Assembly (NCBI GenBank): GCA_964520295.1
Contig: CAZFMQ010000002.1
Span: 50,379 to 114,378 of the forward strand
Source of the DNA: an uncultured Candidatus Saccharibacteria bacterium
GTDB lineage: Bacteria > Patescibacteriota > Minisyncoccia > Phycocordibacterales > EsbW-18
DNA length: 64,000 nucleotides
Direction: 5' to 3'
Shown piece by piece: positions 2,466-60,558 of the stretch. Both the position numbers and the translations under genes were made by a program. The number at the start of each line of letters is the position of its first letter. The first letter of the stretch is position 1. The notes under the pieces are model-generated. The model worked only from the letters and a program-made list of their open reading frames with translations, was not told the DNA's origin and did no database searches.

Positions 2466-3064
2466 ACAAACTGTTTGAGTATTTCAATGTCTTTTTTATG
2501 CGTCGGTAATAGTGCGCGCGAGTATATCGCCGATGCCGGATGGTACAACGGCACGATAATCACATCTCCATACGACGTTGTAGCAGTATACATTTTTCCG
2601 TGCGCAACTGAAATTGGTTCAAGTAACGCCTCCAAACCCATACGCTTCATAATGTACTGCATAGAGAAACGCCCGAGCGTTGCAATGACACGAGGTTGAA
2701 TGATTTCAATTTGTCTATCCAAGAACGGACCATATGCGGCAATCTCTTCGGGGGTTGGATCTCTATTCTCTGGTGGTTTGTCTTTCACAATATTGGTGAT
2801 GTAGATATCTTCACGTGACACACCTGCATGCGCCAACAGTTCATTGAGTATGTTGCCCGCCGCACCACAAAACGGTTTGCCTGTTTTTGCCTCATGACGA
2901 CCTGGTGCTTCACCAACACATAGTATACGTGCGTTATGATCCCCTTCCCCCACCACAGGAAAATACTTCTGTGTTGTACGGTATGTATACAAAGGAGATT
3001 CGGTAAACGTAAGTAGCTCATCTTGAATGGCGCGCATCTGCTCTGTCTTGGATCCCGTATCCAT
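2462..3064 (-). CDS. Uracil-DNA glycosylase, family 4 type
   Basis: The GEAPG...FxGxAG motif (VGEAPGRHEAKTGKPFCGAAGNIL) is diagnostic of UDG family 4 / SPO1-polymerase-related UDGs. The start is chosen at the internal ATG (MDTGSK) because the upstream extension is not conserved-looking. Confidence 0.7.
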   Translation of the reverse strand: MDTGSKTEQMRAIQDELLTFTESPLYTYRTTQKYFPVVGEGDHNARILCVGEAPGRHEAKTGKPFCGAAGNILNELLAHAGVSREDIYITNIVKDKPPENRDPTPEEIAAYGPFLDRQIEIIQPRVIATLGRFSMQYIMKRMGLEALLEPISVAHGKMYTATTSYGDVIIVPLYHPASAIYSRALLPTHKKDIEILKQFV

Positions 3065-3217
3065 GCGCACAGTATACAACAGTGTCCTTACGTGATTACC
3101 ACAAGCATACCGCCGTATTGCTTTTTGAGTATAGAGGCGTACTATCCACCCCAGAGTTGCACCTTCACAATACACAGACATTCGGAAACGTAGTTTCCGA
3201 GCAGAGAAAGGAGAGAA

Positions 3218-4654
3218 ATGCAGGAGAAGCCCAAGCACTATGTCTTGGATACCAGCGTGCTAATGCACGCACCTGAATGCGTAGACCCGCAACGGTCGCC
3301 ATTCGGTGACAACAACGTCACCATCCCTGTGATGGTCTTGCATGAACTTGATCATCTCAAGATGGATGCACGTCGTGGTGCCAACGCCCGAGAGGTCATC
3401 CGTCTCATGGGAGAGGTATTTCCCACCCGGGAAACGATGCACCAGGGTGTGCCCACGGTCGGTGGTGGTCGGATGTTCATCCGCGCCGTCAACGGCAGTG
3501 GCACATTCGTGCTTCCCAAGGAGTATGCCGGCAACACCGGTGATGATTACATCATTCGGGTTGCAGGCATGCTTGCGGAAGAACTGCAGGACACGAATGT
3601 GGTACTGGTGACGAAGGATATTTCCCTTCGTCTCAAGGCACGAGCCGCCGGCGTTGATGCCGACGACCTCAAAACCGGAAAGGTGCAGAAGCCACAGGCT
3701 CTTGCACCCCACATCGCCGACATTGTCGTTGACGGTTCCGTCATCGACGACCTCTACCAAGAGGGGTCCGTCCCCGTGGACGGCTTGCCACTGCCCTACG
3801 GCATCATCTGCAACACCTGTTGCAGATTGACCGATGTGGCGGGCAAAACGCACGCGCTCGGGCTCTACACCACCGATACCATTTCGGTGGTGCGTAAGGT
3901 ACCCGAACACGGCAAGCGTGCCATTGTCCCGCGCAATGCGGAGCAACACTTCGCATACGCGATGGCGGTAAACCCCAACATCCTCACGACTATCCTCGTG
4001 GGAATTGCAGGCACGGGCAAGACGCTCATGGCGTTGAAGGCGGGCGTGGATTTGCTGGAAGATCCCAGCTCATCCATCAATCGCATCCTCGTCTTCAGGC
4101 CAATGATTGAAATCGGATCACCACTCGGCTTTCTGCCGGGTTCAGCCGAGGAGAAGTTCTCGCCGTGGGCGAGCGCCATCACCACCAACCTCGAGCTGTT
4201 GTTTGCCCGTCGTGGGAACAACGGCAACAATGGTCATGCCGCTCAACATGGGGCGGGTACTGACGAGGACGAGGGCAAGAAGCGTGGTAACAAAACAGAA
4301 TCTGGACGTGAGAAGATGCGCCGCTACCTTCGGGAGGGTATCATTTCCGTCCAGCCGGTCACCTTCATTCGAGGTACCACACTTCCCAACTCCTTCATTA
4401 TCGTAGACGAGAGCCAAAACCTCTCGCCGCACGAGGTGAAGGCGCTGCTGACGCGCACAGGCGAAGGGTCCAAGGTGGTGCTGACTGGCGATCTTTCACA
4501 GATCGACAGCCCCCACCTAGATGCCGCATCCTGCGGGCTCGCAAAAGCGCTTGAGCGCATGCGCGGGTACCCAAAGTTCAGCGCCATCGAGCTGACCCGT
4601 GGCGAGCGTTCGCAACTCGCGACGCTCGTTGCTGAAATTTTCTCCGATCTCTGA
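3218..4654 (+). CDS. PhoH2-like protein: N-terminal PIN domain fused to PhoH-type P-loop ATPase (YlaK/PhoH2 architecture)
   Basis: The N-terminus YVLDTSVLMHAP is PIN-like. A Walker A (GIAGTGKT), IIVDESQNL and GDLSQID give the PhoH signature. A strong SD (aaaggagag) lies 3 nt upstream. GC is about 58% against about 46% in the neighbours. Confidence 0.8.
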   Translation: MQEKPKHYVLDTSVLMHAPECVDPQRSPFGDNNVTIPVMVLHELDHLKMDARRGANAREVIRLMGEVFPTRETMHQGVPTVGGGRMFIRAVNGSGTFVLPKEYAGNTGDDYIIRVAGMLAEELQDTNVVLVTKDISLRLKARAAGVDADDLKTGKVQKPQALAPHIADIVVDGSVIDDLYQEGSVPVDGLPLPYGIICNTCCRLTDVAGKTHALGLYTTDTISVVRKVPEHGKRAIVPRNAEQHFAYAMAVNPNILTTILVGIAGTGKTLMALKAGVDLLEDPSSSINRILVFRPMIEIGSPLGFLPGSAEEKFSPWASAITTNLELLFARRGNNGNNGHAAQHGAGTDEDEGKKRGNKTESGREKMRRYLREGIISVQPVTFIRGTTLPNSFIIVDESQNLSPHEVKALLTRTGEGSKVVLTGDLSQIDSPHLDAASCGLAKALERMRGYPKFSAIELTRGERSQLATLVAEIFSDL

Positions 4655-4896: not shown

Positions 4897-7239
4897 ATGG
4901 CACACACAACAGCGAAGCGCGTAAGCGGCATTACCAAGATTGTAAAACGTAACGGTAGCACGGTTGCGTTTGACAGAGATAAAATTGCCGTTGCTGTTGA
5001 AAAAGCATTACGCGCCGCTGGTGAATATACAAAAGGTGCCCCGGAACAAGTCGCAAAAGCAGTAGAAAAAGCACTTATTGCGCAAAAAAAGGCGCAAAAA
5101 TCATATGTACCGACCGTTGAAGGTGTTCAGGATGCTGTGGAAAAGGAGCTCATGCTTCTAGGTCATACAACTACTGCCAAGGCCTATATTCTCTATCGTG
5201 TAGAACGATCTCGCATTCGCTATGAACAGGGCGAAGTGCCTGAACACGTCAAAAAACTTGCCGAAGAGAGCAAAAAGTACTTTAAAGACAACCCATTGGG
5301 TGAATTTGTCTATTTACGCACGTACGCACGCTGGATTGAATCAGAAAATCGTCGCGAAACATGGGTAGAGACTGTTGATCGTTATATGTCATTCATGCGC
5401 GAAAACCTCGGCAAAAAATTAAAAGACAGCGAATACAGCGAATTGCGCGAAGCAATCCTCAAACAAGAAGTTATGCCATCTATGCGTTTGATGCAGTTTG
5501 CTGGTGAACCTGCACGCCGTTGTAACACCTGTGCATACAACTGCACCTACACCGCAACAACCAAATTGGAGGATTTTGCAGAAATTATGTATCTCTCCAT
5601 GCAGGGTTGTGGTGTTGGATTCACCGTTGAAAGCCAAAATATTGAAAAATTGCCACAGATTCAGAAACAATCAGGTACCGTACTCCCTACCTACACCGTT
5701 GCAGATTCAAAGGAGGGGTGGTGTGATGCACTGACACACGGTCTCAAAACATGGTACAACGGCCAAGATGTAGAGTTTGATTTCTCACAGATTCGTCCAG
5801 CGGGTGCACGCCTCAAAATTATGGGTGGAAAAGCATCAGGACCAGATCCATTGCGTTCCCTACTGGTATTTGCACGCGAAAAGATTTTGCGCCGCCAAGG
5901 TCGTCGCCTGCGCCCCGTTGATGCGCACGACATCATCTGCAAAATTGGTGAATGTGTTGTTGCCGGTGGTGTGCGCCGCACCGCAATGATTTCTCTTTCC
6001 GACTTGGACGATTCTGACATGCGCGATGCAAAAAAGGGACGCTTCTACGTCAATGAACCGTATCGCGTGGTAGCAAACAACTCTGCTGTCTATGAATCAC
6101 AGCCATCAAGTACAGAACTTATGGAGGAGTGGATTGCACTCATGAAAAGTGGTTCGGGAGAGCGCGGTCTGTTCAACCGCGGTTCGCTCTCAAAAAATAT
6201 TCCTGCACGCCGTTTGAAGTATTTACAGGCAAAGGGGCGCGCCACACAGGACGGAGTGATGCTGACGAGCATTGGTACCAATCCATGCGCCGAAATTATT
6301 TTGCAACCAAAACAATTCTGTAATCTCTCCGAGGTAATTGCACGTGCCGGCGATACACAAGAAGAGCTCGTACGCAAAGCACGCCTTGCCTCAATGCTCG
6401 GCACGTACCAATCAACACTAACTAACTTCAAATACATCTCAAAAGAGTGGACTGAAAATTGTCGCGACGAATCGTTGTTGGGCGTATCAGTTACAGGACA
6501 ATGGGATTCCGAAGAGTCACGCAACCCTGCAACGTTGCGTGCAATGCGTGACGTGGCAGTAAAGACAAATGCCACCTACGCAAAACGTTTTGGGGTCAAT
6601 CCATCCACGTCAGTGACTGCGGTAAAACCATCAGGTACGGTATCGCAAACATTCAACTGTGCATCAGGTATTCACCCACGACATGCTGAATACTACATTC
6701 GTCGCGTGCGTATCTCTGCAACCGATTCGCTCTTCCGCATGATGCGCGATCAAGGTGTGCCGGCAGTTCCAGAAGTGGGACAGACCGTAGATAATGCCAC
6801 CACGTATGTTCTTGAGTTCCCTGTAAAATCACCGGAGCACTCAAAGTACAAAGATGATTTTAGTGCTATTGATCAGCTTGAGTATTGGAAAAATATCAAA
6901 CTCAACTACACCGAGCACAATCCATCAGCAACTATCTCTGTGGGCGAAGACGAATGGATTGCCGTTGTAGATTGGATTCAGAAAAACTGGGATATTGTCG
7001 GTGGTCTTTCTTTCCTCCCTCGCTTTGATCACGTGTACCAACTTGCGCCATACGAAACAATTGATAAGAAGCGCTACGATGAGATGGTAGCGGCATTTCC
7101 TAAAATTGATTATGCAAAGTTGGTAACCTACGAAGTTACTGATGGAACCGAACAAAAGCGAGAATTAGCATGCGCCGGCGGTACGTGTGAAATTGAACCA
7201 ATGCCTGAAGAGGCAAAAGTGACAAAGGCAAAAGCGTAA
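4897..7239 (+). CDS. nrdJ: Class II (adenosylcobalamin-dependent) ribonucleotide reductase with N-terminal ATP-cone
   Basis: An ATP-cone N-terminus (KIVKRNGSTVAFDRDKIAVAVEKAL), the class II NPCAEI motif (IGTNPCAEIILQP) and a C-terminal Cys pair (CAGGTCEIEP). Confidence 0.85.
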   Translation: MAHTTAKRVSGITKIVKRNGSTVAFDRDKIAVAVEKALRAAGEYTKGAPEQVAKAVEKALIAQKKAQKSYVPTVEGVQDAVEKELMLLGHTTTAKAYILYRVERSRIRYEQGEVPEHVKKLAEESKKYFKDNPLGEFVYLRTYARWIESENRRETWVETVDRYMSFMRENLGKKLKDSEYSELREAILKQEVMPSMRLMQFAGEPARRCNTCAYNCTYTATTKLEDFAEIMYLSMQGCGVGFTVESQNIEKLPQIQKQSGTVLPTYTVADSKEGWCDALTHGLKTWYNGQDVEFDFSQIRPAGARLKIMGGKASGPDPLRSLLVFAREKILRRQGRRLRPVDAHDIICKIGECVVAGGVRRTAMISLSDLDDSDMRDAKKGRFYVNEPYRVVANNSAVYESQPSSTELMEEWIALMKSGSGERGLFNRGSLSKNIPARRLKYLQAKGRATQDGVMLTSIGTNPCAEIILQPKQFCNLSEVIARAGDTQEELVRKARLASMLGTYQSTLTNFKYISKEWTENCRDESLLGVSVTGQWDSEESRNPATLRAMRDVAVKTNATYAKRFGVNPSTSVTAVKPSGTVSQTFNCASGIHPRHAEYYIRRVRISATDSLFRMMRDQGVPAVPEVGQTVDNATTYVLEFPVKSPEHSKYKDDFSAIDQLEYWKNIKLNYTEHNPSATISVGEDEWIAVVDWIQKNWDIVGGLSFLPRFDHVYQLAPYETIDKKRYDEMVAAFPKIDYAKLVTYEVTDGTEQKRELACAGGTCEIEPMPEEAKVTKAKA

Positions 7240-7241
7240 CT

Positions 7242-7772
7242 ATGCTCTACACCCGCAAAGGTGATGACGGCACATCGGGTTTGTTTGGCACAAAAGAGCG
7301 CTTCCCTAAAAACAGTCCTTTGTATGAAGCGCTCGGGGACGTAGATGAACTCAATTCGTTCATTGGATTGTGTCGCACAAAAGCAGGATCATTGCGTGCT
7401 TTTGACGTATCTGCGGAATTACTCACTGTACAACAATGTTTGTTCATCATACAAGCGGAACTCGCAGGAGCAGATAAACGCATGTCTCAAGCGCATATAG
7501 ACGTCTTGGAGGCAGTTGTGGCGCGCGCCGAAGAACCAATTGGCAATCCACACTCGTTTATTGTGCCCGGCACCACTGAAGCGTCGGCGTTGTTGGATGT
7601 AGCGCGCGTCGTATGCCGACGCGCTGAGCGTTCGGTCATAGCCGCGCGCACTCAAAAAGAGATATCAAAAAGTGCGTATGCGTACCTCAACCGCCTCTCT
7701 AGTTTGCTCTACGCACTCGCCCGTCTTGCCGCTTTTGAGAGCGACACACCAGAGGAAAAACCAACCTACTAG
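7242..7772 (+). CDS. PduO-type ATP:cob(I)alamin adenosyltransferase
   Basis: The N-terminal MLYTRKGDDGTSGLFGTKER...LGDVDELNSFIG matches the PduO/MMAB-type ATR signature. It lies immediately downstream of nrdJ. Confidence 0.8.
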   Translation: MLYTRKGDDGTSGLFGTKERFPKNSPLYEALGDVDELNSFIGLCRTKAGSLRAFDVSAELLTVQQCLFIIQAELAGADKRMSQAHIDVLEAVVARAEEPIGNPHSFIVPGTTEASALLDVARVVCRRAERSVIAARTQKEISKSAYAYLNRLSSLLYALARLAAFESDTPEEKPTY

Positions 7773-8644
7773 AACAATGTGAGTATTTTTTGAATACCTG
7801 CAAGATTCTGTTCCCATTCAATATGTTCGTGTGTGGCAAGTTCAACGGTGATTGCGGGAATGTTGATAGATGCCAACCATCCCTCTGCGTCGCCACTGAT
7901 AGGATATGCATCAAATGTTGAAACGGGAGTATAGCCCGCAGCGTCAGCATATGCCTGCATGAGCGTACGTGTTGTCGGCAAGACACCCCCATGGCATTCA
8001 GATGCGTATACTGCATTTGCTTGACTGTGCCAAAAGACAACTGCAGATGGTGCGAAGGTCGTCACAGCAAAACGAATTGCCTGTGCTTCTGGTTCAGAAA
8101 ATGGTGCCGTACCTGCAGATACTTCTTGCGAACGCCACGTGCTAGTCGGTTGCCACTTGCAATCAAAATTTCGATTGAGGTCTACATCGCGCGCGTTAAA
8201 TCGAGCAGATGCAAGCAGTGTTTGATTTGTTGATGCATCTGCCGCAGTAAAGCGTCCTTCTGTGCCCACTACCTCAACAAGGGCGTCGGGATTTGCAGAT
8301 GGAATAACGACCAATGAAAGATGCGACGGCACAAACGTTGGGTTTGTCGTCAAGTAATCCATGAATGTGTATGCCAACAATGTGCTGTTCCACTCATACC
8401 CGCCGTGCATACCGCCCACAAACATAAGTGTTGTTGAGCCAGTACCATACACGTACGCGGTAATGGGACGACCTTGTACGGATTGCCCGATCTGCTGTTG
8501 GCGCATTGCAGGCACCTCTTGATCCACTGTTGGTGCAACCTCTTCGGGTTTCTGTGTCATGCGATACACAAACACGCCACCGAGTAATAGAAGGATGGCG
8601 AGTATTGTGCCAACGAGGCGAAACCCTAGTCGTGTTGGAAACAT
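7769..8644 (-). CDS. Membrane-anchored M14-family zinc carboxypeptidase-like protein (catalytic residues intact)
   Basis: An N-terminal TM helix, HGGYEW (HxxE zinc ligands), DLNRNFD, a second His (FWHSQ) and a catalytic Glu in ITVELAT. Confidence 0.65.
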   Translation of the reverse strand: MFPTRLGFRLVGTILAILLLLGGVFVYRMTQKPEEVAPTVDQEVPAMRQQQIGQSVQGRPITAYVYGTGSTTLMFVGGMHGGYEWNSTLLAYTFMDYLTTNPTFVPSHLSLVVIPSANPDALVEVVGTEGRFTAADASTNQTLLASARFNARDVDLNRNFDCKWQPTSTWRSQEVSAGTAPFSEPEAQAIRFAVTTFAPSAVVFWHSQANAVYASECHGGVLPTTRTLMQAYADAAGYTPVSTFDAYPISGDAEGWLASINIPAITVELATHEHIEWEQNLAGIQKILTLF

Positions 8645-9543
8645 TATTCTGCGAGGTCAGCGAGTACTGCCTCAATACCCTTGCGGTTTTTCTCCCACTC
8701 GGTGTTAGTATGATCCGTTAGCAATACGCTGATTGCAGGAATACCATTCTTAGCAAGCCAGTTAACCATATCGCCTGATGTTTCGTATGCATCAAAACTC
8801 TGGTGTGCTGGGTATCCTGATGCTTGTGCGAAGAGATTCGTGAGTGCTGTTGTGTCGCTAGATACTGTCTTGCCTTCACATGATGATGCGTACACACCAC
8901 CTGCTGCGCTATACCACACCACAACTGCATCTGGCTTGTATGACACTACGAAATCGCGTACCGCACGGCTTTCTGATTCAGAAAATGCGCTCGTACCACC
9001 CGATACTGTTTTATTTTGCCATACACCGGTTGTCTTCCATCCACAATCAAAGTTTCGGTTGAGATCTACAGTATTTTCGTTGAATCGACCTGCTACTGTC
9101 GCTTCAGAAGCTGTGTTAACACTATTTGCTGAAAATCCTTCATTGTCGGCAACAACCTTGGCAAGACCGTCTGGGTTTACTACTGGAATCACAACTACCT
9201 GTACACCTTCAGGAACTGCGCTTGGATTTGCAGAAAGAAAATCAATCAATTCGTATGCGAGCAGTGATGTATTCCATGCATAGCCACCGTGAATACCTCC
9301 CACAAAGAGTGCCTTGTTGTCGCCTGTACCAAAACGGTACGCAATAATATCGCGTCCACCTTCAGAAGAACCGATGACTGCTTGTGCATCCTGTGGTTCA
9401 GTCGGTGTTATATCCGTTGTCGTTGTTGCTGTCGGTGTCGTCGTTGCAGTATCAACCGGCGTGGTGTCCGGAGATTTTTTCAACATTGAGTATCCAATAA
9501 AACCGAGAATAAGAATCGCGAGAATAATAAGTGCTTTTTTCAT
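8644..9543 (-). CDS. Paralogous M14-like protein with Thr-rich linker; zinc-ligand Glu and catalytic Glu replaced (likely non-catalytic)
   Basis: Clear paralog of 7769-8644 (GGIHGGYAWN, DLNRNFDC). It has HGGYAWN instead of HGGYEWN and ISVLLTD instead of ITVELAT. It has an N-terminal TM helix and a T/P-rich linker. Confidence 0.6.
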   Translation of the reverse strand: MKKALIILAILILGFIGYSMLKKSPDTTPVDTATTTPTATTTTDITPTEPQDAQAVIGSSEGGRDIIAYRFGTGDNKALFVGGIHGGYAWNTSLLAYELIDFLSANPSAVPEGVQVVVIPVVNPDGLAKVVADNEGFSANSVNTASEATVAGRFNENTVDLNRNFDCGWKTTGVWQNKTVSGGTSAFSESESRAVRDFVVSYKPDAVVVWYSAAGGVYASSCEGKTVSSDTTALTNLFAQASGYPAHQSFDAYETSGDMVNWLAKNGIPAISVLLTDHTNTEWEKNRKGIEAVLADLAE

Positions 9544-11114: not shown

Positions 11115-11777
11115 TTATATTGTGGGCATTGCAAGCGCCACATACTCCAACAACAGTTTCAATGACGAACCGCGACGCAATACGTACGTACGTGTGCGTT
11201 CCAATGCTTTGAGTGCACCACGGTTCGTCTCTACATCTCGCGACAACACTTCTTCCAATGCATTACATAATGCGAGCGCATCATCACGACGTTTTTCTTC
11301 AATGACATCTGCAACACTGTTCATGCGCTCTGAAAACGATTGTTTCAAAAATATCTCTGCCTGTTTTGTGTCGGTTGTGTGTGCACGTTCAGGTGTTAGT
11401 GTGTGCAAGCGCGATTGTAATGTTGGCAACACCACATCATGCGTTGGCACAACAAAAAAGAATGATGTGCGCTGTGGTGGCTCCTCGGTCATTTTCAACA
11501 GTGCGTTCTGGGCTTCGTGGGTTGCCTGTATAAATGAAATAAGCACCACACGGTGGGCATCTTCAGGCACCACAGTGTGCAGGCGATCCCCAACAGCGCG
11601 CACTTCATCCACCGAGAGATGCTGTGCCGCAATGTGATGCATATCGGGATTGCCTGCAGAGATAATCCCCACATCATGCAACTGTGCATGTACATACGCC
11701 GTCAACGTTGCGATATCTCCCGCGAGCAGATATGCATGGTGTTGTGCTACATCCATACGCCTATCGTTTTGCCACAA
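11115..11777 (-). CDS. holB: DNA polymerase III delta' subunit-like clamp-loader protein (short)
   Basis: ALLKMTEEPPQRTSFFFVVPTHDVVLPTLQSRLHTL matches the delta' LLKxLEEPP...LPTIxSR motif. There is an HAYLL motif near the N-terminus. It is only 220 aa. Confidence 0.6.
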   Translation of the reverse strand: MWQNDRRMDVAQHHAYLLAGDIATLTAYVHAQLHDVGIISAGNPDMHHIAAQHLSVDEVRAVGDRLHTVVPEDAHRVVLISFIQATHEAQNALLKMTEEPPQRTSFFFVVPTHDVVLPTLQSRLHTLTPERAHTTDTKQAEIFLKQSFSERMNSVADVIEEKRRDDALALCNALEEVLSRDVETNRGALKALERTRTYVLRRGSSLKLLLEYVALAMPTI

Positions 11778-12787: not shown

Positions 12788-14092
12788 CTACAACGTGATG
12801 CGCTCAATGGAAAGCCCGATGCCCTGCATTTTGGCAACGGCGTCCTCATACCCGCGATCTACCCAGTGAATATTGTGAATGAGTGACGTACCTTTTCCGA
12901 CGCTTGCCGCAATAATATACGCCAATCCTGCGCGCAAATCAGGCGTGTACAGCTCGCGACCCGTCAATTTTGCAGGACCTTTTACGAGCGCCTTATGCGG
13001 ATGCACCATAACAACATCGGCACCCATGGACACAAGGTCGGCAGTATACCCCAACCGCCCTTCAAAAATCATTTCTTCAACAACACTTTCACCGTGTGCT
13101 TGTGTGCAAAGGACTAAAAATGGCGATTGTAAGTCAGTGGGAAAACCTGGGTACTCGTGCGTACGAATGCGCAATGGCGACAGTGTGCTGTTACTCTCCG
13201 TGTTGTTGGTAATGGTGATGCTGTCTGCATGCACCGAGAGTAGCACACCCGCCTGTTGCAACATCTGCAATGGCAATTCTAAATCTGCAGGATTGCAATT
13301 CGTTATGGTGAGCTGTTCTGCACACAACGCACCGAGCACCAAATAACTTCCTGCTTCAATACGATCCGGAATAACAAGATGCGCTTCTGCTTGTTGGTAT
13401 GAAAGTGGTATGCCGTTGGTGCCCACAATCGTCAGAGTATTTGTACCGATCCCTTCAATTTGTGCACCTGCCTTTTTTAGAAATACTGCCAAATCAGTCA
13501 CCTCCGGCTCCAATGCTACATTCTTGAGCACAGTAGTGCCGTGCGCCAACACACTTGCCATAAGCAATGTTTCGGTACCCGTTACACTTTGAATAGGAAA
13601 AAAGAATTCACTACCCTTGTACGTATCCGCTTCAACGGTGAATAATGCATCGCTCTCATGCACGGTTGCTCCCGCGGCTTTGTAGCCACTCAAAAATAAA
13701 TCAATCGGACGTTCGCCAATAACGCAACCACCCGGTGATGGAAATGTGACATGGTGCGTACGCGCTAATAATGCACCCGTCAAAATAATGGATGCACGAA
13801 ATTTGTTTGCGATAGCAATATCCAGTGCGCCATGCACTACAGCAGATGCATCAATGGTGATGGAATCGCCGTTGCGCGTCACACGTGCACCCGCACCCTC
13901 CAACAACGCAATCATTTTATCCACATCGGTAATCGCAGGTACGTTTGAAAACGTCACAGGCGTCTGAAAGAGCACGCTACTAGCCAATAATGGAAGCGCA
14001 TTATTCTTTGCTCCGGAAATAGCAATAGTGCCGGAGAGTTTTTTCTCCCCATTGAGCCCCTCAATACGAAACGCATCCTGCTTTGAATCCAT
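12788..14092 (-). CDS. murA: UDP-N-acetylglucosamine 1-carboxyvinyltransferase
   Basis: ISGAKNNALPLLASSVL and the EPT-fold repeats. 434 aa. Confidence 0.85.
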   Translation of the reverse strand: MDSKQDAFRIEGLNGEKKLSGTIAISGAKNNALPLLASSVLFQTPVTFSNVPAITDVDKMIALLEGAGARVTRNGDSITIDASAVVHGALDIAIANKFRASIILTGALLARTHHVTFPSPGGCVIGERPIDLFLSGYKAAGATVHESDALFTVEADTYKGSEFFFPIQSVTGTETLLMASVLAHGTTVLKNVALEPEVTDLAVFLKKAGAQIEGIGTNTLTIVGTNGIPLSYQQAEAHLVIPDRIEAGSYLVLGALCAEQLTITNCNPADLELPLQMLQQAGVLLSVHADSITITNNTESNSTLSPLRIRTHEYPGFPTDLQSPFLVLCTQAHGESVVEEMIFEGRLGYTADLVSMGADVVMVHPHKALVKGPAKLTGRELYTPDLRAGLAYIIAASVGKGTSLIHNIHWVDRGYEDAVAKMQGIGLSIERITL

Positions 14093-14123
14093 AGGTTATA
14101 TGCTGGTATCATACCATTGTCGT

Positions 14124-16022
14124 ATGTACATCATCTCTGTTATCCCCGTTATGAAGCGCGCGCCACAGGAAGGCCTGTCGTATTACAGCGCAAAAGAAAT
14201 CCCCATGGGAAGTGTTGTGCGTGTTTCAGTAGGCAAGCGCAAGGTGCATGGTCTCGTGGTAGATGTTGCACATGTCAAACAAGAAAAAACACAAATCAGA
14301 AAGGCCGGATTTGCTCTTAAAAAAATAGAGGGGGTGGTACAACGCAAACCATTTGATCCCCCACTACTCAATGCACTGCAGTCACTTGCTGAACACTACG
14401 CACGCACCATTGGCACCATGTTACATGCGGTACTACCTGAAGCACTTCTTGTAGAATCACTGTCCAGCGGGCAACCTGTAGCCCAACGCAAAACAGATGT
14501 TATTCCTGACATCAAAATTGCCACGGCATCATATGAAGATCGCATCGGACGATACAAATCACTCACACGCGAATCTTTTGCGCGCGAACAGTCGGTGGTG
14601 TGCATCTGCCCTACACAAACAGAAACGGAAACACTTGCAGAACACATCGGCAAAGGTATTGAAGATCGCTTGTTCGTATTTCATAGTCGCCTCACATCAA
14701 AAAAAATAAAGGAGCGCTGGAAGGCGGCACTCAACGCCCCACACCCAGTCGTCATTGTCGGCACCGGTATTTGCGCCACCATCCCACGTCATGACATTGG
14801 ACTGTATGTGCTGGAGCATGAATCATCGCCACACTTCAAACAAAAAGAAACACCATACGTAGATACGCGTGTAGTCGTTGAGTACATTGCGCGCGCACGA
14901 GGATGCGATCTTATTTTAGGTGATGCATATCCGCGTATTGAAACACTGCACCGCTATTTCACGCACGCTATTTCAGATATTGCACGACCAACGATGCGTC
15001 AGGAGTATCGTGCGACAGTAGACATCGTAGATATGCGCGCGCAAAAACGAGACCACGACACACCCATGTCGCTGTTCTCTGATACTGCCATCAATGCTAT
15101 TCAAGAGGCGCGCGCGCAAAAGCGTCGCACCGTGCTCTTTTGTGTACGCAAAGGGTTTGCACCGTTCACCGTATGCCGTGATTGTGGTCAAGTGTACACG
15201 TGCGGTCGGTGCGACGCGCCCATGACACTCTACAACCCCAGTGGTGACGCGCAGCACCGCACCTTTCGTTGCAACCGATGTGGCAAAGTTGAAGATGCAC
15301 AAACACTGTGCGCTACGTGCCGTTCATGGCGATTAGAAAGTTATGGTGTTGGTATTGAACATGTTGCACAACAGGTGCGTGCACAATTCCCTGACGCACT
15401 TTCCTTTGTGGTATCACGTGACGCAACACCAACACCCGCATCTGCGCAACGTGCACTTGATGCATGGGAAAAAACAACGTCAGGCATCCTCTTGGGTACT
15501 GAAATGATGTTACCCCTCCTAACAGGTAGAAACTTTGATGCCATCATCATTGTCTCTTTGGATACGCTCACCTTTCTGCCTGATTTTCGTATGGGCGAAC
15601 GTGTGTTCCATATTGTGTCGCACTGTGCACAGCTGGCACAGAAACACGTCATCGTGCAAACACGCACACCAGAATATGCAGCACTTACCTTCGCTAAAAC
15701 AGGTGATGGCCTCGGCATGTATCGCTATGAAGAAAGTGTTCGCAAAGAGTACGAGTACCCACCATTTTCAGTGTTTATAAAAATAACACGACGTGGAAAA
15801 AAGGAGACGGTCGTTGCCGATCTCACCGAACTACAAAAACTCTTCCCAGAATATCGCGCGACACTCTACCCCGCATTTGTGTCGCGTGTCCACAATATGC
15901 ACATGGCACACCTCCTGCTCTCTATTCCCTCCTCACAGTGGCCTGATCAAAAAGTATCGCGCATACTCCGTGCACTACCACCGCAATATATCATCACCGT
16001 TGAACCTGAAAGTTTGCTATAA
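14124..16022 (+). CDS. priA: Primosomal protein N' (PriA)-like with Cys4 zinc-binding domain but degenerate Walker A/B helicase motifs
   Basis: An N-terminal 3'-DNA-binding-like region, a Cys-rich CRDCGQVYTCGRCDAPMTLY...FRCNRCGK motif and helicase motifs Ia-VI alignable to PriA. The P-loop position reads ASYEDRIGRYKSL instead of GVTGSGKT, and DEEH reads LEHE. The start is chosen downstream of the divergent murA start. Confidence 0.65.
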   Translation: MYIISVIPVMKRAPQEGLSYYSAKEIPMGSVVRVSVGKRKVHGLVVDVAHVKQEKTQIRKAGFALKKIEGVVQRKPFDPPLLNALQSLAEHYARTIGTMLHAVLPEALLVESLSSGQPVAQRKTDVIPDIKIATASYEDRIGRYKSLTRESFAREQSVVCICPTQTETETLAEHIGKGIEDRLFVFHSRLTSKKIKERWKAALNAPHPVVIVGTGICATIPRHDIGLYVLEHESSPHFKQKETPYVDTRVVVEYIARARGCDLILGDAYPRIETLHRYFTHAISDIARPTMRQEYRATVDIVDMRAQKRDHDTPMSLFSDTAINAIQEARAQKRRTVLFCVRKGFAPFTVCRDCGQVYTCGRCDAPMTLYNPSGDAQHRTFRCNRCGKVEDAQTLCATCRSWRLESYGVGIEHVAQQVRAQFPDALSFVVSRDATPTPASAQRALDAWEKTTSGILLGTEMMLPLLTGRNFDAIIIVSLDTLTFLPDFRMGERVFHIVSHCAQLAQKHVIVQTRTPEYAALTFAKTGDGLGMYRYEESVRKEYEYPPFSVFIKITRRGKKETVVADLTELQKLFPEYRATLYPAFVSRVHNMHMAHLLLSIPSSQWPDQKVSRILRALPPQYIITVEPESLL

Positions 16023-34224: not shown

Positions 34225-36522
34225 TTATTTTGCGACCGCAGATGCTTCCGTAAATGAAACTGAAAGCAGTTGCGATACTGCATCGTGCCCCATCGTCACA
34301 CCGTACAGAACCCCTGCACGCGACATTGTTTCGCGATTATGCGTAATCAAAATAAGTTGTGTCTTCTGCGCCAAGTTTTCAATCATGTCTCCGTAGCGTC
34401 GGCTGTTTGCTTCATCTAATGCCGCATCTGTTTCGTCTAAGATAATAAACGGTGGTGGATTTACTTGTGACATTGCAAAAATAAGTGCGATAGACGTTAG
34501 CGCACGCTCACCACCCGACAACATTTCCAATCCGCGTACCTTTTTGCGTGGGAGCGACACGTTGATTTCAACACCTTCCTGCACTTTTTCTTCATCGTCG
34601 GCGCCACCATCCTCATCGTTTTCTAACATGCTTTCAAGATCAGTATCTTTGCGTGCACGCTTTTTCTCTTTCACCACATCCAACGATGCTGAACCGCCAC
34701 CAAACATAATGGAGAAAAATGAATTGAACTCTATGTTGATTTTTTGTATACCTTCGGAGAACTCTCGCGAGAGCGTTGTATCCAAATCTACAATCAGCTG
34801 TTTCAGCGCATCAGCCGAAGCTACCAAATCTGCGATTTCTTTTTCCAAATGCGCATCGCGGGCTGTTACCTCCTCAAATTCTTTGACCACATCATCGCCG
34901 CCTGCCGTTCCTGCTTCTTCTAAACGAATTTTCATGCGTTCAATATCTTTTTTACGCCCCTGTTGTACCGAGCGCTCCTCTTTTGTGTCGCTCTGTGCAA
35001 GCACCGCAAGAATGTCGTCAAATCGAACGGCTTCTAGGCCAGCAAGCGCACCCGCTTCAATCAATTCACGTTTATATTCCTCCTCCTCAAGAGCACATGC
35101 TTGTAGTTCCCCTTTGAGTGTTTGAATCTGCAAGCGTACATTCTGCTGTTCATGCGAGAGTGCAAAAATAGCACGCTCTATTTCACGTCCCGATGTGAGA
35201 TCTTCTTCAATCGTTGATTGCAATTTTTTATAGGTCGCTTCGTGCTCGTGTTCCTCTGCAGTACTACGCTCAATATCTGCCGTAATACGTGCGCGCTCTT
35301 TTTCAAGGTTTTGTAGTTGTACGCGCATATCCTCTAACTCATTGGAAGATGTAGCAGTGGTGCCCGCAAGAGTGTCGGAAAAATCACTCACGGTTGTCTT
35401 GAGACGTTGTAGCGCGTCTTTGAGTCCACCAATATCAGAAAGCACGAGCGCATCGGTAATGTGTGCCAACACCTTTGAAACAAGTGTAGATACAGATGCG
35501 TACGGCACGGTACGGTGCGCATCTTCTGTCTGGCGTTTTTCTTCACGCGCAATGAGTGCAGTAATAGCCGCCATTTCACCCTCTAGACGGCCGGCGTCAC
35601 GCATTTTTTCATCTTTCTGTTGGCGAATGGTGCGTAATTTTTGTTCACTAGCAAGTAATGCTTCTGATGTGGTGTCTTTGTGTGAAAGCTGTTGTAATTT
35701 TTCACGCGCGTCGCCAATCTCGCGTTCCAATGTGCGCATACGTTCTTCGTGCGGTTGTAGCGCTTCTTCAAGCGATGTACGTTCACGTGCAAGATATGTT
35801 TTTTCTCGCGCAAAATATTCTCGGTACTCTTGCACCAACGCACTGGCAAGTTCGCGTGCCTTTGCCACTTTTGCCATCTGCTTCTCCAAAAACTTCAAAT
35901 GTGGTTTGAGTTCACGGCGAATGCTTTCTGCTTTTTCCAGATTCTCTGCTGTCTTTTCAAGTTTCTTGATGCTCTCTTCTTTTTTGTACTGATACACCTT
36001 CAAACCCAGGGCGTCTTCTACCATTGTCTTTCGCTCGCGTGGATTGACCGACAAAATTCTATCTGCTTCACCTTGCGAAATGATGTGGTGCCCCGATGCA
36101 CCAATGTGCGCACTACTCAATAATTCAAAAATATCTTTGAGGCGTGATGATGATCCGTTCAAATTGTATTCCGATGATGCATCGCGGTGAATAATGCGCT
36201 CCAACAGCACCTCGTCGAAATCCAAATCAAAAAGCTTTTGGCCATCAGCGCCAGCACGTGTGGTGTTGTCAAAGGTCAATTTGACGTATGCACGATTACT
36301 GCGTGGTGCATCTTTTGAGCCATTCCAAATAAGATCTTCCGTGCGCTTTCCGCGCATTGATTTCAATGACTGCTCACCGAGCACAAACCGGAATGCTTCT
36401 GCAACGTTTGATTTACCCGAACCATTCGGGCCAACAATTGCAGTAATGGGGGTTTTGAACTCAAGTGTTGTTTTCTTTGCAAACGATTTGAATCCAGAAA
36501 GTTCCAGCGATTTCAGATACAT
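34225..36522 (-). CDS. smc: SMC-family chromosome segregation ATPase (short, 765 aa)
   Basis: The N-terminal MYLKSLELSGFKSFAKKTTLEFKTPITAIVGPNGSGKSN (SMC head), coiled-coil middle, signature LSGGERAL and a Walker B ILDETDAALD. Confidence 0.75.
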   Translation of the reverse strand: MYLKSLELSGFKSFAKKTTLEFKTPITAIVGPNGSGKSNVAEAFRFVLGEQSLKSMRGKRTEDLIWNGSKDAPRSNRAYVKLTFDNTTRAGADGQKLFDLDFDEVLLERIIHRDASSEYNLNGSSSRLKDIFELLSSAHIGASGHHIISQGEADRILSVNPRERKTMVEDALGLKVYQYKKEESIKKLEKTAENLEKAESIRRELKPHLKFLEKQMAKVAKARELASALVQEYREYFAREKTYLARERTSLEEALQPHEERMRTLEREIGDAREKLQQLSHKDTTSEALLASEQKLRTIRQQKDEKMRDAGRLEGEMAAITALIAREEKRQTEDAHRTVPYASVSTLVSKVLAHITDALVLSDIGGLKDALQRLKTTVSDFSDTLAGTTATSSNELEDMRVQLQNLEKERARITADIERSTAEEHEHEATYKKLQSTIEEDLTSGREIERAIFALSHEQQNVRLQIQTLKGELQACALEEEEYKRELIEAGALAGLEAVRFDDILAVLAQSDTKEERSVQQGRKKDIERMKIRLEEAGTAGGDDVVKEFEEVTARDAHLEKEIADLVASADALKQLIVDLDTTLSREFSEGIQKINIEFNSFFSIMFGGGSASLDVVKEKKRARKDTDLESMLENDEDGGADDEEKVQEGVEINVSLPRKKVRGLEMLSGGERALTSIALIFAMSQVNPPPFIILDETDAALDEANSRRYGDMIENLAQKTQLILITHNRETMSRAGVLYGVTMGHDAVSQLLSVSFTEASAVAK

Positions 36523-37746: not shown

Positions 37747-38649
37747 TTACTGGTGTTGCTTTTGAGAGAGCAACGTAATTGCCTTCGTAATCAGCGGTAG
37801 AATATCGTCGTAAATGTTGAGGTTTACAATTTCACCGAGACGGAACCATCGTGCATCATCTAAACCGCCTGACGAACCGAGGTGCAAATCACGGAATGGT
37901 GCTTCTGCAAGGAAGTAGGTAACGCGCTTGCGTATCTTTCCCTTCTCGGGATGCGACGCAATGTACTCATTACTACCAATTTCATCTTGCAAGGTAATGT
38001 CCAGCCCTAATTCTTTGTGTATCTCGCGCACCGTACCTGTACGCACATCTTCCTTTTCTTCTATGCGCCCTTTGGAAAGAGTCCAGTGTCCGAAGACGTC
38101 ATGCACAAACGCGATATAAATATCGTCTTCATGACGAGCGTACACGACCGCGCCGCCCAACACCTCTTGTGGCATTTCTTCATACGGCACCTCTTTCTTT
38201 CGTTTTGATGTCTCGTTCTTGCCTGGCTCTCCCAATTCTTTATATACAGAGCCAAGTACACCGTTGACGAAACGACCCGATGAGTCACCACCAAAACTTT
38301 TCGCAAGTTCAATAGCTTCATTAATGGCAACTTTTGCAGGTACATTTGCACGGTCACCGAACAAAAGTTCAAAGAGACCGAGACGTAATACGTTGCGGTC
38401 TACAAGCGAAATTTTCTCCAGCGGCCATTCAGGTGCCGCTTTGACAATAATAGTGTCAATATCTTTTCGCTTCTCAATAACCCCTTTCAAGAGTGATCTC
38501 ATAAATTCTCCTTCATTGATGCCGTGTGCGTATTCGTCGGCAACATGAGAAAGGATACCGTCTGCTTCTTTTGAAGAAACGGGAGAAAAATCAATCTGGA
38601 AAAGTGTCTGAAGAACAACTGATCTCGCTAGGTGGCGATTACTCATCAT
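37747..38649 (-). CDS. nusB: NusB-Nudix fusion protein (N-terminal transcription antitermination factor NusB, C-terminal Nudix hydrolase)
   Basis: Residues about 1-150: VPAKVAINEAIELAKSFGGDSSGRFVNGVLGSV is nearly identical to the NusB core. Residues about 190-300 carry the Nudix box GHWTLSKGRIEEKEDVRTGTVREIHKELGL (Gx5Ex7REUxEExGU). Confidence 0.75.
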   Translation of the reverse strand: MMSNRHLARSVVLQTLFQIDFSPVSSKEADGILSHVADEYAHGINEGEFMRSLLKGVIEKRKDIDTIIVKAAPEWPLEKISLVDRNVLRLGLFELLFGDRANVPAKVAINEAIELAKSFGGDSSGRFVNGVLGSVYKELGEPGKNETSKRKKEVPYEEMPQEVLGGAVVYARHEDDIYIAFVHDVFGHWTLSKGRIEEKEDVRTGTVREIHKELGLDITLQDEIGSNEYIASHPEKGKIRKRVTYFLAEAPFRDLHLGSSGGLDDARWFRLGEIVNLNIYDDILPLITKAITLLSQKQHQ

Positions 38650-46361: not shown

Positions 46362-47189
46362 TTATATACACAAACGTTGCGCTTCTGCGATAACTGCGTC
46401 CACTTTCTTACCCGTAATACCTGCATGTTCCAATACATTTGGATTGCTCGTAATATCTTTACACAGTACGATACCGCGTTGATACATTGCCTCACGTTCC
46501 TTTTGCCCAAGTGATGTCAAACATGAGAGTGGGTGCAATTTTGTCTCTTCAATCAAATCCTGCAAATTACCTTTTTGTGGATATCCCCACCCCACCAAGG
46601 TCATGTGTGAACAGGCCCCAAATGCAATCGCATTTTCCGTAAACTTTGTGTTAGTAACTAACCACGACGAACACGTACCACCTGGAGGACATAGCCCATC
46701 ATAGTGATTATCACGCAAGTCATTCATGCGCGCATGGATGTAGAGAGCCACCTTCACGTCTGTTTTGAAACCTTGCGCATTATGGAACTTTGCTTCCACG
46801 AGAATAAGCTCTTTCTGATTGCGAGCGACCACATCTATTTCGTGCGACACACACTTTCCGCGTAATGTGGTGCCCACCTGTGTTTGATACCCCTTACTGC
46901 GAAACATCTCGCCGAGTAACTGTTCGAAGGGAAAACCAGATGGCCCTAACTCAAGCACTGCGCGGCGCAATGAGTACCGAGCGGCAATCGGTGCGCGCGA
47001 TGATTTACGCAACAATTTGAGTGCGTGTTTATAGATGCGCGACGTGGACATACCGTCCGTCACCTCTTTTTCAATCGTGGTAACAATATCACGCACAACC
47101 TCCTCAGATGCGCCGACACGTCGGAGTGATTCTGCCAACTTTTCAGGTTCAAACGCTTCAACAGTTCCGTCCAATTTCGTAATGAGCAT
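46362..47189 (-). CDS. ATP-cone domain fused to Mrr-type (PD-(D/E)XK) restriction endonuclease-like domain
   Basis: The N-terminal ITKLDGTVEAFEPEKLAESLRRVGASEEVVRDIV is an ATP-cone. The central FEQLLGEMFRSKGYQTQV...HEIDVVARNQKELILVEAKF matches the Mrr_cat D...(D/E)xK core. Confidence 0.6.
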   Translation of the reverse strand: MLITKLDGTVEAFEPEKLAESLRRVGASEEVVRDIVTTIEKEVTDGMSTSRIYKHALKLLRKSSRAPIAARYSLRRAVLELGPSGFPFEQLLGEMFRSKGYQTQVGTTLRGKCVSHEIDVVARNQKELILVEAKFHNAQGFKTDVKVALYIHARMNDLRDNHYDGLCPPGGTCSSWLVTNTKFTENAIAFGACSHMTLVGWGYPQKGNLQDLIEETKLHPLSCLTSLGQKEREAMYQRGIVLCKDITSNPNVLEHAGITGKKVDAVIAEAQRLCI

Positions 47190-53999: not shown

Positions 54000-54248
54000 A
54001 TGGCAAAAAGAATTTCTCAAGGCGTTGTGCATATGCTCCCCGCAGATGTACGGAATGTACTTGCATCAACACCCGCAATGTTGAAGGTATGGGAAGATAT
54101 TACTCCATTGGCACGTAATGAGTGGATTTGTTGGATTACATCCGCCAAACAAGCAGAAACACGAGCACGCAGATTATGCATCGCTCGCGAAAATCTTCAA
54201 AAAGGCAAACGCCGCCCGTGCTGTTGGGCGGGCTGTATGCACCGATAA
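54000..54248 (+). CDS. YdeI/OmpD-associated (DUF1801-like) small protein
   Basis: The C-terminal motif EWICWITSAKQAETRARRL matches the YdeI/OmdA signature (W.sAK..eTR.kR). Confidence 0.5.
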   Translation: MAKRISQGVVHMLPADVRNVLASTPAMLKVWEDITPLARNEWICWITSAKQAETRARRLCIARENLQKGKRRPCCWAGCMHR

Positions 54249-54424
54249 AACCCTTGTTGGCACTTACAAATGCGTTTCCAAAAACTCTAACGTCTCCTCC
54301 CATGCATCTCGCGTTTCATTAGGTGCATAGTTTGGACCTCTTGGACGAAGTTAGAACCCTTTTACTACAAGGAGAAAGTGAGTTTTACTATCGCTGTCCA
54401 TCGTTTGCTATGCCAATATAAAAA

Positions 54425-54760
54425 CTATTTTTGTAGTTTCTTTGTGATACGACCTTCTTTTATTTCATAACCTTCGGAAATAAGACGATTATGTATTCCA
54501 CGAAGAACATCTCCAAGCTCTGAAATTGCTTTGATGCTTTCATCTGTAAGTGCTGGCTTTTTCACCCCACCTTGTTCATCACTATTTATTTTCTTGTAGA
54601 GATGTGGGTTTTGTTTCTTATCCTGCTTGAGTAGCCAATCAAAAGCTCCGAGTAAATTGTGAGTAGCTTCCCACGCTTCACTATCAGAATACTCAACTCC
54701 ATACTGTTCTTTGAACATCTTTTTGAAACTGGCGACAGTTTCGGGAGAAATATGGACCAT
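54425..54760 (-). CDS. Hypothetical protein (island)
   Basis: 111 aa, AT-rich codon usage, no recognisable motifs. Confidence 0.4.
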   Translation of the reverse strand: MVHISPETVASFKKMFKEQYGVEYSDSEAWEATHNLLGAFDWLLKQDKKQNPHLYKKINSDEQGGVKKPALTDESIKAISELGDVLRGIHNRLISEGYEIKEGRITKKLQK

Positions 54761-54766
54761 TACTTT

Positions 54767-55162
54767 CTATATATTTTTATCAAGAAACTTTTTGAGAGCG
54801 ACCAAATCTTTTTTATCTTTGTCGTAATGATATGAGACAATCCCAACTGATTGAGCAGATTTTACAGCATCGGGATTATGCTCAAAATACACAACATCAT
54901 TTACACTCCAACCATTTTGCTCAAGTAGAGTTTTGAAATAGAGAGGTTCTGGTTTATCTGGATTATGCTTCATTGTAAAAACAGAATACGGGATAGAGTT
55001 CAGACCGAACTGGACCATTTGTTCATCATTTGCATTTGTGAGTATAAGTTTTGGGTTCGGATATGTCTCAAGAAGGTCAAAGAGTTCTTTGTATTGCACA
55101 TATTCTCCAGCTCCATTTTTTATTATTGCTGTATTTACAGCATCAACAAGTATAGTTTTCAT
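54767..55162 (-). CDS. HAD-superfamily hydrolase-like protein with atypical motif I (DAVNT)
   Basis: Motif I ILVDAVNT (nucleophile Asp present, second Asp replaced), motif II ILTNA, motif III Lys and motif IV FEHNPD. Confidence 0.45.
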   Translation of the reverse strand: MKTILVDAVNTAIIKNGAGEYVQYKELFDLLETYPNPKLILTNANDEQMVQFGLNSIPYSVFTMKHNPDKPEPLYFKTLLEQNGWSVNDVVYFEHNPDAVKSAQSVGIVSYHYDKDKKDLVALKKFLDKNI

Positions 55163-55163
55163 A

Positions 55164-57707: not shown

Positions 57708-57711
57708 AGTT

Positions 57712-59475: not shown

Positions 59476-59503
59476 AGTAATTGTAATCTTGGTTAGGGTG
59501 TCC

Positions 59504-59713
59504 TTATGAATGGGACTTCAGATAATTGATAATGTCTTCCTTTCGGTATCTTCGCACTCGTTTCGCACCGATGCGGATGGCTGGAAGTGTGCCATTGTTA
59601 TCCCACTGGCGGAGCGTGTTCGGATGGACCTTCAGCAAATCACACGCTTCTTGCAGTGTCAGAAGTTCTGGAACTTCCTCCTGTTCTTGCTTTTTATCGC
59701 TGTTATTTATCAT
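59504..59713 (-). CDS. Excisionase/AlpA-like helix-turn-helix DNA-binding protein
   Basis: LLTLQEACDLLKVHPNTLRQWDNNGTLPAIRIGAKRVRRYRKEDI is an HTH_17/Xis-type motif. It lies upstream of mod-res. Confidence 0.6.
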   Translation of the reverse strand: MINNSDKKQEQEEVPELLTLQEACDLLKVHPNTLRQWDNNGTLPAIRIGAKRVRRYRKEDIINYLKSHS

Positions 59714-60039
59714 AAAAATTGATTGATTTTCTACTTACCTTTTGATACCATTATCTTACAGTATTTTGCCTTTTGAAGCAAAATTGCCCTGTAGATAAAC
59801 ATTACTATTACTATGAAACTGGGAGTAAAAATCAAAGAAAGAATAGCAAGAACGATTGCCGAACACTTTACTACAAATGAGATAGTAAATGTTTTTACAG
59901 ATGCAAACATCACTACAGACAAATCTCTTTATGCAAAATGGCGAGAATAAAAAGGGACTTTTTCATATACCAAAAGTATACAACATTGGGCAGGTGATGC
60001 TATATACAACTGAACATCCCCACGAGTGAGAAATTGGCA

Positions 60040-60516: not shown

Positions 60517-60558
60517 ACCCCTGATTATAGCTGCTTGATTCAAAATATGCTAAATATG

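Follow-up and report, generated by a model that had tools for sequence, protein, structure and literature searches.

A conserved PriA homologue of Parcubacteria-group bacteria with erased ATPase motifs and retained DNA-contact residues: a predicted pseudohelicase

Between murA and hisS, a 64-kb stretch of contig CAZFMQ010000002.1 (positions 50,379 to 114,378 of the forward strand, GenBank assembly GCA_964520295.1, deposited as an uncultured Candidatus Saccharibacteria bacterium; hereafter the window) contains an intact open reading frame (ORF) for a 632-amino-acid (aa) protein related to the primosomal protein PriA (Table 1). The architecture of this protein is that of PriA: a 3'-end DNA-binding domain (3'BD), two RecA-like lobes (HD1 and HD2), a zinc region with eight cysteines and a domain at the C terminus (CTD). 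At the level of sequence motifs the pattern is a clean one, in that the elements on the nucleic-acid side are retained and those on the nucleotide side are erased. ATG 14124 was taken as the start codon because alignments to about 120 homologues of 620–680 aa start at M1 and have 100% coverage; the alternative longer start at GTG 14028 would overlap the divergent murA gene (12788–14092, minus strand). A scan for promoters and terminators around priA returned no sites above the level found in shuffled sequence. The promoter-like site listed in Table 1 is therefore a candidate only, since this region contains 3 such sites against a shuffled mean of 3.5.

The assignment to PriA was examined by profile, sequence and structure comparison. 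The priA equivalog model TIGR00595 (NCBIfam) scored 233.5 bits, a marginal pass over its cut-off of 230.35, and the Pfam model PriA_3primeBD (PF17764) scored 41.4 bits (cut-off 22.7) at aa 25–105. The Pfam model for the PriA zinc ribbon (PF18319) stayed below its cut-off (14.8 versus 26 bits), and the Pfam scan of the 632-aa protein gave no match to PriA_C, DEAD, ResIII or Helicase_C. A phmmer search against PDB sequences retrieved only PriA, from Klebsiella pneumoniae (4NL4, E = 4.5e-35) and from Escherichia coli (6DCR, 8FAK). Profile–profile alignment of the family with 60 canonical PriA sequences from the candidate phyla radiation (CPR), using hhalign, extended over 616 columns (Prob 100, E = 2.8e-81). 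An AlphaFold2 (AF2) model of the protein, built on 120 homologues, reached a predicted local distance difference test (pLDDT) score of 91.4 and a predicted template modeling (pTM) score of 0.89. With this model as query, a Foldseek search of the PDB returned nine PriA chains with E values from 3e-44 to 7e-29 (best 8fak_H, template modeling (TM) score 0.81, E = 3.4e-44), and generic superfamily 2 (SF2) helicase folds ranked below them at about 1e-9. The predicted fold is close to PriA structures only and points to no different SF2 family. The first-pass annotation, which a model had made from the DNA letters and their translated ORFs, had called the protein a PriA homologue, and TIGR00595, the Pfam 3'BD model, phmmer and hhalign all agree with that assignment.

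The AF2 model is nearer to 8fak_H, the PriA/PriB/fork state (TM 0.81), than to apo PriA (TM 0.69–0.71). A modeled canonical PriA from Gracilibacteria, which served as control, prefers the fork-bound state likewise (TM 0.84 versus 0.71), which means that this resemblance does not single out the degenerate protein. After this control we dropped the idea that the protein is locked in the fork-bound conformation in which the cysteine-rich region (CRR) is up.

The register of the helicase motifs was established with MAFFT, including E. coli PriA (from NC_000913.3), and with hhalign against the profile of canonical CPR PriAs. In the hhalign register the Walker A motif GITGSGKT aligns to A-SYEDR with a one-residue deletion, and R140 falls on the column of the Walker lysine (E. 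coli K230). We relied on this profile alignment because one MAFFT run placed the Arg one residue later. Among 120 relatives of the 632-aa protein, the sample to which all residue counts below refer unless stated otherwise, Arg occupies this column without exception, and the same holds for 140 of 143 further representatives of 50%-identity clusters. The P-loop region of the AF2 model forms a two-residue loop, with a helix that begins three residues before R140, whereas in the canonical control model the loop counts five residues and the helix begins at the lysine. Motif II, DEEH, is replaced by E231-H-E-S234, and the relatives follow the pattern [ED]-[RHK]-E-[SN]. Motif III, SAT, has become DAY, with D267 in 118 of the 120 sequences. 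Motif V kept its GTEM half and lost the KGhhF half. The arginines of motif VI (GRAGR) are absent following a five-residue deletion, and the site reads HCAQLAQK. The LNxxQ (Q-like) helix before motif I, present even in the short canonical PriA of Gracilibacteria, is missing. The winged-helix (WH) domain that E. coli PriA has at about aa 113–198 is absent too, which leaves some 85 E. coli residues without a counterpart; this domain does not define the family, because canonical Gracilibacteria PriA also lacks it.

A regular-expression scan found no [AG]xxxxGK[ST], GxGK[ST] or DExH/D string anywhere in the 632-aa protein. In the relatives such strings occur occasionally and at scattered places, mostly as CGKT in the zinc knuckles, and none recurs at the aligned columns of motifs I and II. 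With these scans, which covered the query and 263 relatives, and the profile–profile alignment, we can exclude a P-loop that is merely shifted or misaligned. The Walker A motif is thus destroyed, as the first-pass annotation had claimed. Its second claim, that DEEH had changed to LEHE, was correct as to the loss of the motif and one residue out in register (EHES, aa 231–234). The losses go beyond these two motifs and include motif III, motif VI, the LNxxQ helix and the WH domain.

The DNA-facing elements present the opposite picture. In the 3'BD pocket, the equivalents of E. coli F16, Y18 and K61 are L18 (118/120), Y20 (118/120), K66 (K or R in 118/120) and K67 (117/120). Overall, conservation of these pocket residues ranges from 97 to 118 of the 120 relatives. 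Conserved residues mark motif Ia (P163 in 119 and T/S164 in 110 sequences) and motif Ic (T214 in 116). The loop following motif II, which according to cryo-electron microscopy (cryo-EM) wedges into the fork junction in E. coli PriA, contains Y/W238, P244 and R249, each in 118 of the 120. Motif IV is retained with R342 and G344 in every relative and R/K343 in 118; the E. coli equivalents of the two basic residues, R427 and R428, bind single-stranded DNA (ssDNA) in the PriA pore (PMC13594977). G458 and T459 of motif V are invariant or nearly so, and in the CTD YPPF545–548 and K553 are conserved. Where the first-pass annotation had described a retained Cys4 zinc insertion, the CRR has eight cysteines, of which C351, C354, C396 and C399 are invariant and C360, C363, C383 and C386 are found in at least 90% of the relatives. 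The zinc-binding domain is indeed retained, as that annotation had said, and is predicted to bind zinc at two sites.

The former nucleotide pocket has its own set of conserved residues: [ED]139, the invariant R140, [ED]231, a basic residue at position 232 (107/120) and E233 (119/120). All 120 sequences have a K or an R at position 145. Since these residues are not random, we conclude that the former pocket is under selection. It is probably filled by a self-satisfied charged network of [ED]139–R140 and [ED]231–[RHK]232–E233.

Table 1. The priA-like gene of the window, its domains and motifs, and the upstream promoter-like site
Feature	Position in window	Strand	Description
Promoter-like TTGAAT-18-TATCAT, extended −10 TG	14083..14112	+	sigma-70-like; 11 nt 5' of the ATG, near-leaderless; weak
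priA-like gene, predicted PriA pseudohelicase	14124..16022	+	intact ORF, ATG to stop, 632 aa plus stop
3'-end DNA-binding domain (3'BD)	14124..14438	+	aa 1–105; PF17764 at aa 25–105
Short variable linker	14439..14507	+	aa 106–128; stands where the WH domain and LNxxQ helix would be
RecA-like lobe 1 (HD1)	14508..15023	+	aa 129–300; catalytically degenerate yet conserved; fold matches PriA HD1
Former Walker A	14520..14546	+	aa 133–141, ATASYEDRI; R140 on the Walker lysine column (hhalign)
Former motif II / Walker B	14814..14825	+	aa 231–234, EHES replaces DEEH
Former motif III	14922..14930	+	aa 267–269, DAY replaces SAT
RecA-like lobe 2 (HD2), first segment	15024..15158	+	aa 301–345; from alignment to E. 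coli HD2 and AF2 model
Motif IV, ssDNA-pore arginines, retained	15144..15164	+	aa 341–347, VRKGFAP
Cysteine-rich region (CRR)	15159..15332	+	aa 346–403; four CxxC pairs, two predicted Zn sites
RecA-like lobe 2 (HD2), second segment	15333..15713	+	aa 404–530; motif V GTEM (aa 458–461) kept, KGhhF lost
Former motif VI	15621..15644	+	aa 500–507, HCAQLAQK; both arginine fingers gone, 5-residue deletion
C-terminal domain (CTD)	15714..16019	+	aa 531–632; from hhalign to canonical CTD and fold

The degenerate motifs are common to all 120 best homologues, which share 29–71% identity. A search of 1.84 billion cluster representatives gave 13,457 matches at E ≤ 1e-3. From these we examined the best 150 representatives (50%-identity clusters, all E ≤ 1e-101), 143 of which were new beyond the first 120 relatives. 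For these 143 sequences we inspected the 15 most frequent variants of the DEEH column; DEEH is not among them, and they fit [ED]-x-E-[SNHDAT]. The alignment of the approximately 120 homologues contains 19 invariant and about 50 near-invariant columns. Information content per column is similar throughout the protein (3'BD 2.27 bits, HD1 2.30, HD2 2.36, CTD 2.25), with the highest value in the CRR (2.47) and the lowest in the linker (0.93), which also has the lowest pLDDT (72–79). HD1 alone has 21 columns conserved at 90% or more. Compared with the nearest genome, Candidatus Campbellbacteria AMX-MBFR-44, the protein is 71% identical, similar to MurA (72%) and HisS (66%), and MreB is 95% identical. 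The dead lobe is conserved no less than the other domains, so the gene is not decaying. Judged by these conservation patterns, the motor-dead state of this PriA is a family trait under purifying selection.

To place the family among bacteria, we scanned species-representative genomes, seeding the scan with 20 closer sequences, and obtained 33 loci. Those loci and the named relatives belong to Campbellbacteria, Kaiserbacteria, Nomurabacteria, Parcubacteria, Paceibacterota or Minisyncoccia. Several relatives come from third-party annotation (TPA) assemblies with the generic label "Saccharibacteria", which we judged untrustworthy. Thirty of the 33 loci encode full-length family members with degenerate motifs, and two, one from Gracilibacteria and one from an actinomycetotal genome (Actinomycetota), encode fully canonical proteins. 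The last locus (L033, Candidatus Paceibacterota SMAG_U8076, positions 2905–4491) contains a divergent PriA-like ORF of 529 aa with 26% identity to the 632-aa protein. This truncated protein aligns poorly at all helicase motifs and was left out of motif scoring; it may be a pseudohelicase that has been reduced still further.

The canonical PriAs of the CPR, which come from Gracilibacteria and Peregrinibacteria, have the full Pfam PriA domain set and are named primosomal protein N' by NCBI. A distance tree groups the degenerate proteins in a single clade on a long stem, apart from these canonical proteins. This topology is compatible with one loss event at the root of the Parcubacteria-group family. 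Since the sister CPR groups keep canonical PriA, that loss was probably independent of the one in Deinococcus-Thermus. NCBI annotates most of the degenerate proteins (P0002, P0009, P0055, P0075, P0097 and others) as "hypothetical protein", and in JGI they carry the name "primosomal protein N' (superfamily II helicase)". The latter label overstates their activity, and the finding of a pseudohelicase corrects this annotation.

A PriA of this kind has a precedent. The PriA of Deinococcus radiodurans was described as a pseudohelicase by Lopper, Boone and Morrow in 2015: it has a Lys-to-Arg exchange and poor motifs I and II, shows neither ATPase nor helicase activity, binds forks and ssDNA with affinities near those of E. 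coli PriA, and interacts with the replicative helicase DnaB (PMC4504706). The CPR protein shares with it the PriA lineage, non-consensus Walker A and B motifs, and an Arg, here the invariant R140, in place of the Walker lysine; by analogy, we propose that it would also bind forks and DnaB without ATPase activity. The two differ in lineage, CPR Parcubacteria as opposed to Deinococcus-Thermus, and in their probably independent origin. In the CPR form, erosion reaches motifs I, II, III and VI as well as the helix that precedes motif I; for D. radiodurans PriA the comparison drew on the published description of motifs I and II.

The second comparison is with E. coli PriA variants changed at the same position, K230R (priA300) and K230A, the former with the same Lys-to-Arg exchange. 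In vivo, K230R PriA is able to support restart, and in vitro it supports the assembly of a primosome, though through the PriA–PriB route only; where the lagging strand is ssDNA, forks can be restarted with ATPase-dead E. coli PriA (PMC5778457; PMC13594977). According to cryo-EM, the pore-closed, partner-recruiting state of PriA needs about 9 nt of ssDNA, and only a duplex lagging arm makes unwinding necessary. Unlike the CPR protein, however, priA300 is an engineered point mutant that keeps the other motifs and the WH domain as well as PriB, DnaT and DnaC; the CPR protein lost five motifs naturally.

Compared with canonical PriA (TIGR00595; 4NL4, 6DCR, 8FAK), the protein has the same order of 3'BD, HD1, HD2 with the inserted two-zinc CRR, and CTD, and a fold that matches at a TM score of 0.81; the motifs that contact DNA (Ia, Ic, IV) and the GT of motif V are common to both. 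Unlike canonical PriA it lacks Walker A, DExH, SAT, GRxGR and the WH domain, and helicase activity would not be expected. UniProt flags the divergent PriAs of actinobacteria as lacking detectable helicase domains. Our protein resembles this group (PRK14873) in being lineage-specific, short and atypical, a likeness drawn from description and profile scores only. Because the PRK14873 models score it much lower than the general priA models do (63–95 versus 233–266 bits), the 632-aa protein lies outside that subfamily. Actinobacterial PriA has also been characterized as "smaller and very divergent" (Rocha et al. 2005, PMC1193525).

From these observations we infer that the protein has lost ATPase and helicase activity and acts as an adaptor. 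The first-pass annotation had already suggested that these activities are gone and that the DNA-binding and scaffolding parts remain, and every in silico test, whether of motifs, conserved residues or fold, agrees with it. We therefore consider it fairly likely that the gene is the PriA orthologue of Campbellbacteria-like Parcubacteria/Paceibacteria, turned into a pseudohelicase that serves as an ATP-independent fork sensor and adaptor. The D. radiodurans protein, E. coli K230R PriA and the cryo-EM requirement for about 9 nt of ssDNA are the grounds for this model. In it, once a fork has been abandoned, the 3'BD pocket would capture the nascent leading strand by its 3' end. Lobe 1 would contact the fork junction and the template with motifs Ia and Ic and with the conserved loop that follows the former motif II. 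Lobe 2, the zinc-bound CRR and the CTD would close around the ssDNA of the lagging-strand template by way of the motif IV arginines. The fork-bound protein would then be a platform that recruits DnaB, either directly, as has been reported of D. radiodurans PriA, or via a partner. If ATP is neither bound nor hydrolyzed, a duplex lagging arm would not be unwound; the action of the protein would be confined to forks or D-loops that expose about 9 nt or more of ssDNA, or whose arm has been cleared by another helicase.

Some observations weigh against this model. The absence of the WH domain removes one of the contacts that E. coli PriA makes with the parental duplex, although canonical CPR PriAs lack this domain too. 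No gene for DnaB, a loader (DciA or DnaC), SSB or a PriB-like protein adjoins priA, so we infer no partner from synteny, and little can be learned about function from the conserved neighbors (mreB, the delta'-like gene, murA and hisS). The case for a salt-bridge network in the former pocket is made by residue conservation only. Finally, a search of the 64-kb window by tblastn, with E. coli PriA and the 632-aa protein as queries, found no second priA, but a canonical copy outside the searched window would weaken the view of this protein as the sole restart factor. Having weighed these points, we still regard an ATP-independent fork sensor and helicase-loading adaptor as the best reading and a probable one.

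A broader proposal would be that the whole Parcubacteria/Paceibacteria radiation restarts replication through a sole, ATP-independent PriA, with the pocket rebuilt as a charged network that forms a permanent latch between the lobes or a new site for a ligand or partner, and with DnaB loaded directly, without PriB, DnaT or unwinding. In this generality we find the proposal rather unlikely. If it were true, this sole ATP-independent PriA would constitute a minimal natural restart system.

Among the alternatives, the one that survives best is that the protein is a diverged PriA paralogue with a job other than restart, for example as a structure-specific DNA-binding or regulatory factor, and that a canonical PriA is encoded elsewhere in the genome. 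The long stem of the family would fit this idea, as would the reach of our searches: the search for a second priA covered the 64-kb window, and the scan of the genome collection, which gave one locus per assembly, was not designed for second copies. On the other hand, the protein still has, in canonical order, every PriA domain and every DNA-contact residue, and the CPR proteins nearest to canonical CPR PriA, where named at all, come from Gracilibacteria, Peregrinibacteria or generic Patescibacteria, with none from the Parcubacteria group. Genomes of that group are small and rarely keep paralogues of replication genes, which also counts against a paralogue, and we consider it clearly improbable.

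Even less probable, to the point where we would give it very little weight, is that a nucleotide is still bound or hydrolyzed at a non-canonical site in which R140, K/R145 and E233 replace the P-loop lysine and Walker B. The invariance of R140 and the near or complete conservation of its two presumed companions would be in line with such a site. Yet the glycine-rich loop is missing and has shrunk to two residues from the five of the canonical model, the position of the catalytic Glu is basic in 107 of the 120 relatives, and both arginine fingers of motif VI are deleted along with the Q-like helix. In E. coli PriA the K230R exchange alone abolishes ATPase activity (PMC4504706). As for a decaying gene or pseudogene that a reduced genome is losing, the joint loss of many catalytic motifs and the "hypothetical protein" label of most relatives might suggest it, but intact, full-length frames in more than 260 diverged relatives, the invariant and near-invariant columns with a dead lobe conserved like the rest, and a rate of divergence similar to that of MurA and HisS have already refuted it, and we leave this reading practically no chance.

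The window as a whole is an ordinary stretch of CPR chromosome. Upstream of priA lie genes for an M16 peptidase, UDG, a PIN-PhoH protein and a class II ribonucleotide reductase, followed by the delta'-like gene, mreB and murA; directly downstream are hisS, an RNase-H-fold exonuclease gene, a DsbA-like gene and a PD-(D/E)XK nuclease gene. A divergent unit of the delta'-like gene and mreB, often with murA, precedes the degenerate priA in most family loci, and the downstream order hisS–exonuclease–dsbA is kept in the closer ones. The delta'-like DNA polymerase III gene next to mreB (11115–11777, minus strand, 219 aa) is also found in loci L005–L027. The exonuclease-like protein encoded after hisS (PF13482; 17244–17819, plus strand, 191 aa) is 71–80% identical in closer relatives, above the values for PriA, MurA and HisS. 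The B12-dependent class II ribonucleotide reductase, which has an ATP cone, is directly followed by a cobalamin adenosyltransferase (together 4897–7772, plus strand), and a tandem pair of paralogous M14 zinc carboxypeptidase genes occupies 7769–9543 (minus strand).

The window also contains a set of transcription and replication genes, namely rpoD, dnaG, rpoC, rpoB, RNase R, SMC, RNase III, NusB-NUDIX, RNase HII and dnaE. The SMC homologue (34225–36522, minus strand) has just 764 aa, where a typical bacterial SMC has about 1,150–1,200. A single 300-aa ORF (37747–38649, minus strand) encodes the fusion of NusB with a NUDIX hydrolase. Another ORF, at 46362–47189 (minus strand, 274 aa), joins an ATP cone to an Mrr-like restriction-endonuclease catalytic domain, an unusual pairing of nucleotide sensor and nuclease. 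Further on are thrS, mnmA, fmt and murB, then a low-GC island with a type III restriction–modification (R-M) system, and pth. This island (54000–60630) has a GC content of 0.38–0.41, compared with 0.45–0.51 elsewhere, and was probably acquired horizontally. Its R-M pair consists of a ResIII helicase-like gene (55164–57707, minus strand) and an N6/N4 DNA methylase gene (57712–59475, minus strand), and it is adjoined by a tRNA-Asn gene (60558–60630, minus strand).

In the literature, the helicase motifs of PriA are described as conserved across bacteria with the exception of Deinococcus-Thermus (PMC4504706; PMC5778457), and the term pseudohelicase is used for PriA only in the Deinococcus work and in papers that cite it. 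Among the papers that we searched in full text, none connects PriA with Parcubacteria or Paceibacteria, and the sole paper naming both PriA and Patescibacteria was unrelated. The novelty implied by the first-pass annotation thus has to be divided: a PriA pseudohelicase as such had been published for D. radiodurans, and what is new is the large CPR lineage and the uniform dead-motor state across it. This would be a second and much larger lineage with a motor-dead PriA, comprising at least 150 clusters at 50% identity within one major branch of the CPR, a radiation of ultrasmall bacteria. Its existence would strengthen the view that the indispensable functions of PriA are fork recognition and helicase loading rather than unwinding. 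As a small protein without a WH domain and with a high-confidence model, this PriA may offer a natural separation-of-function protein for the study of ATP-independent replication restart.

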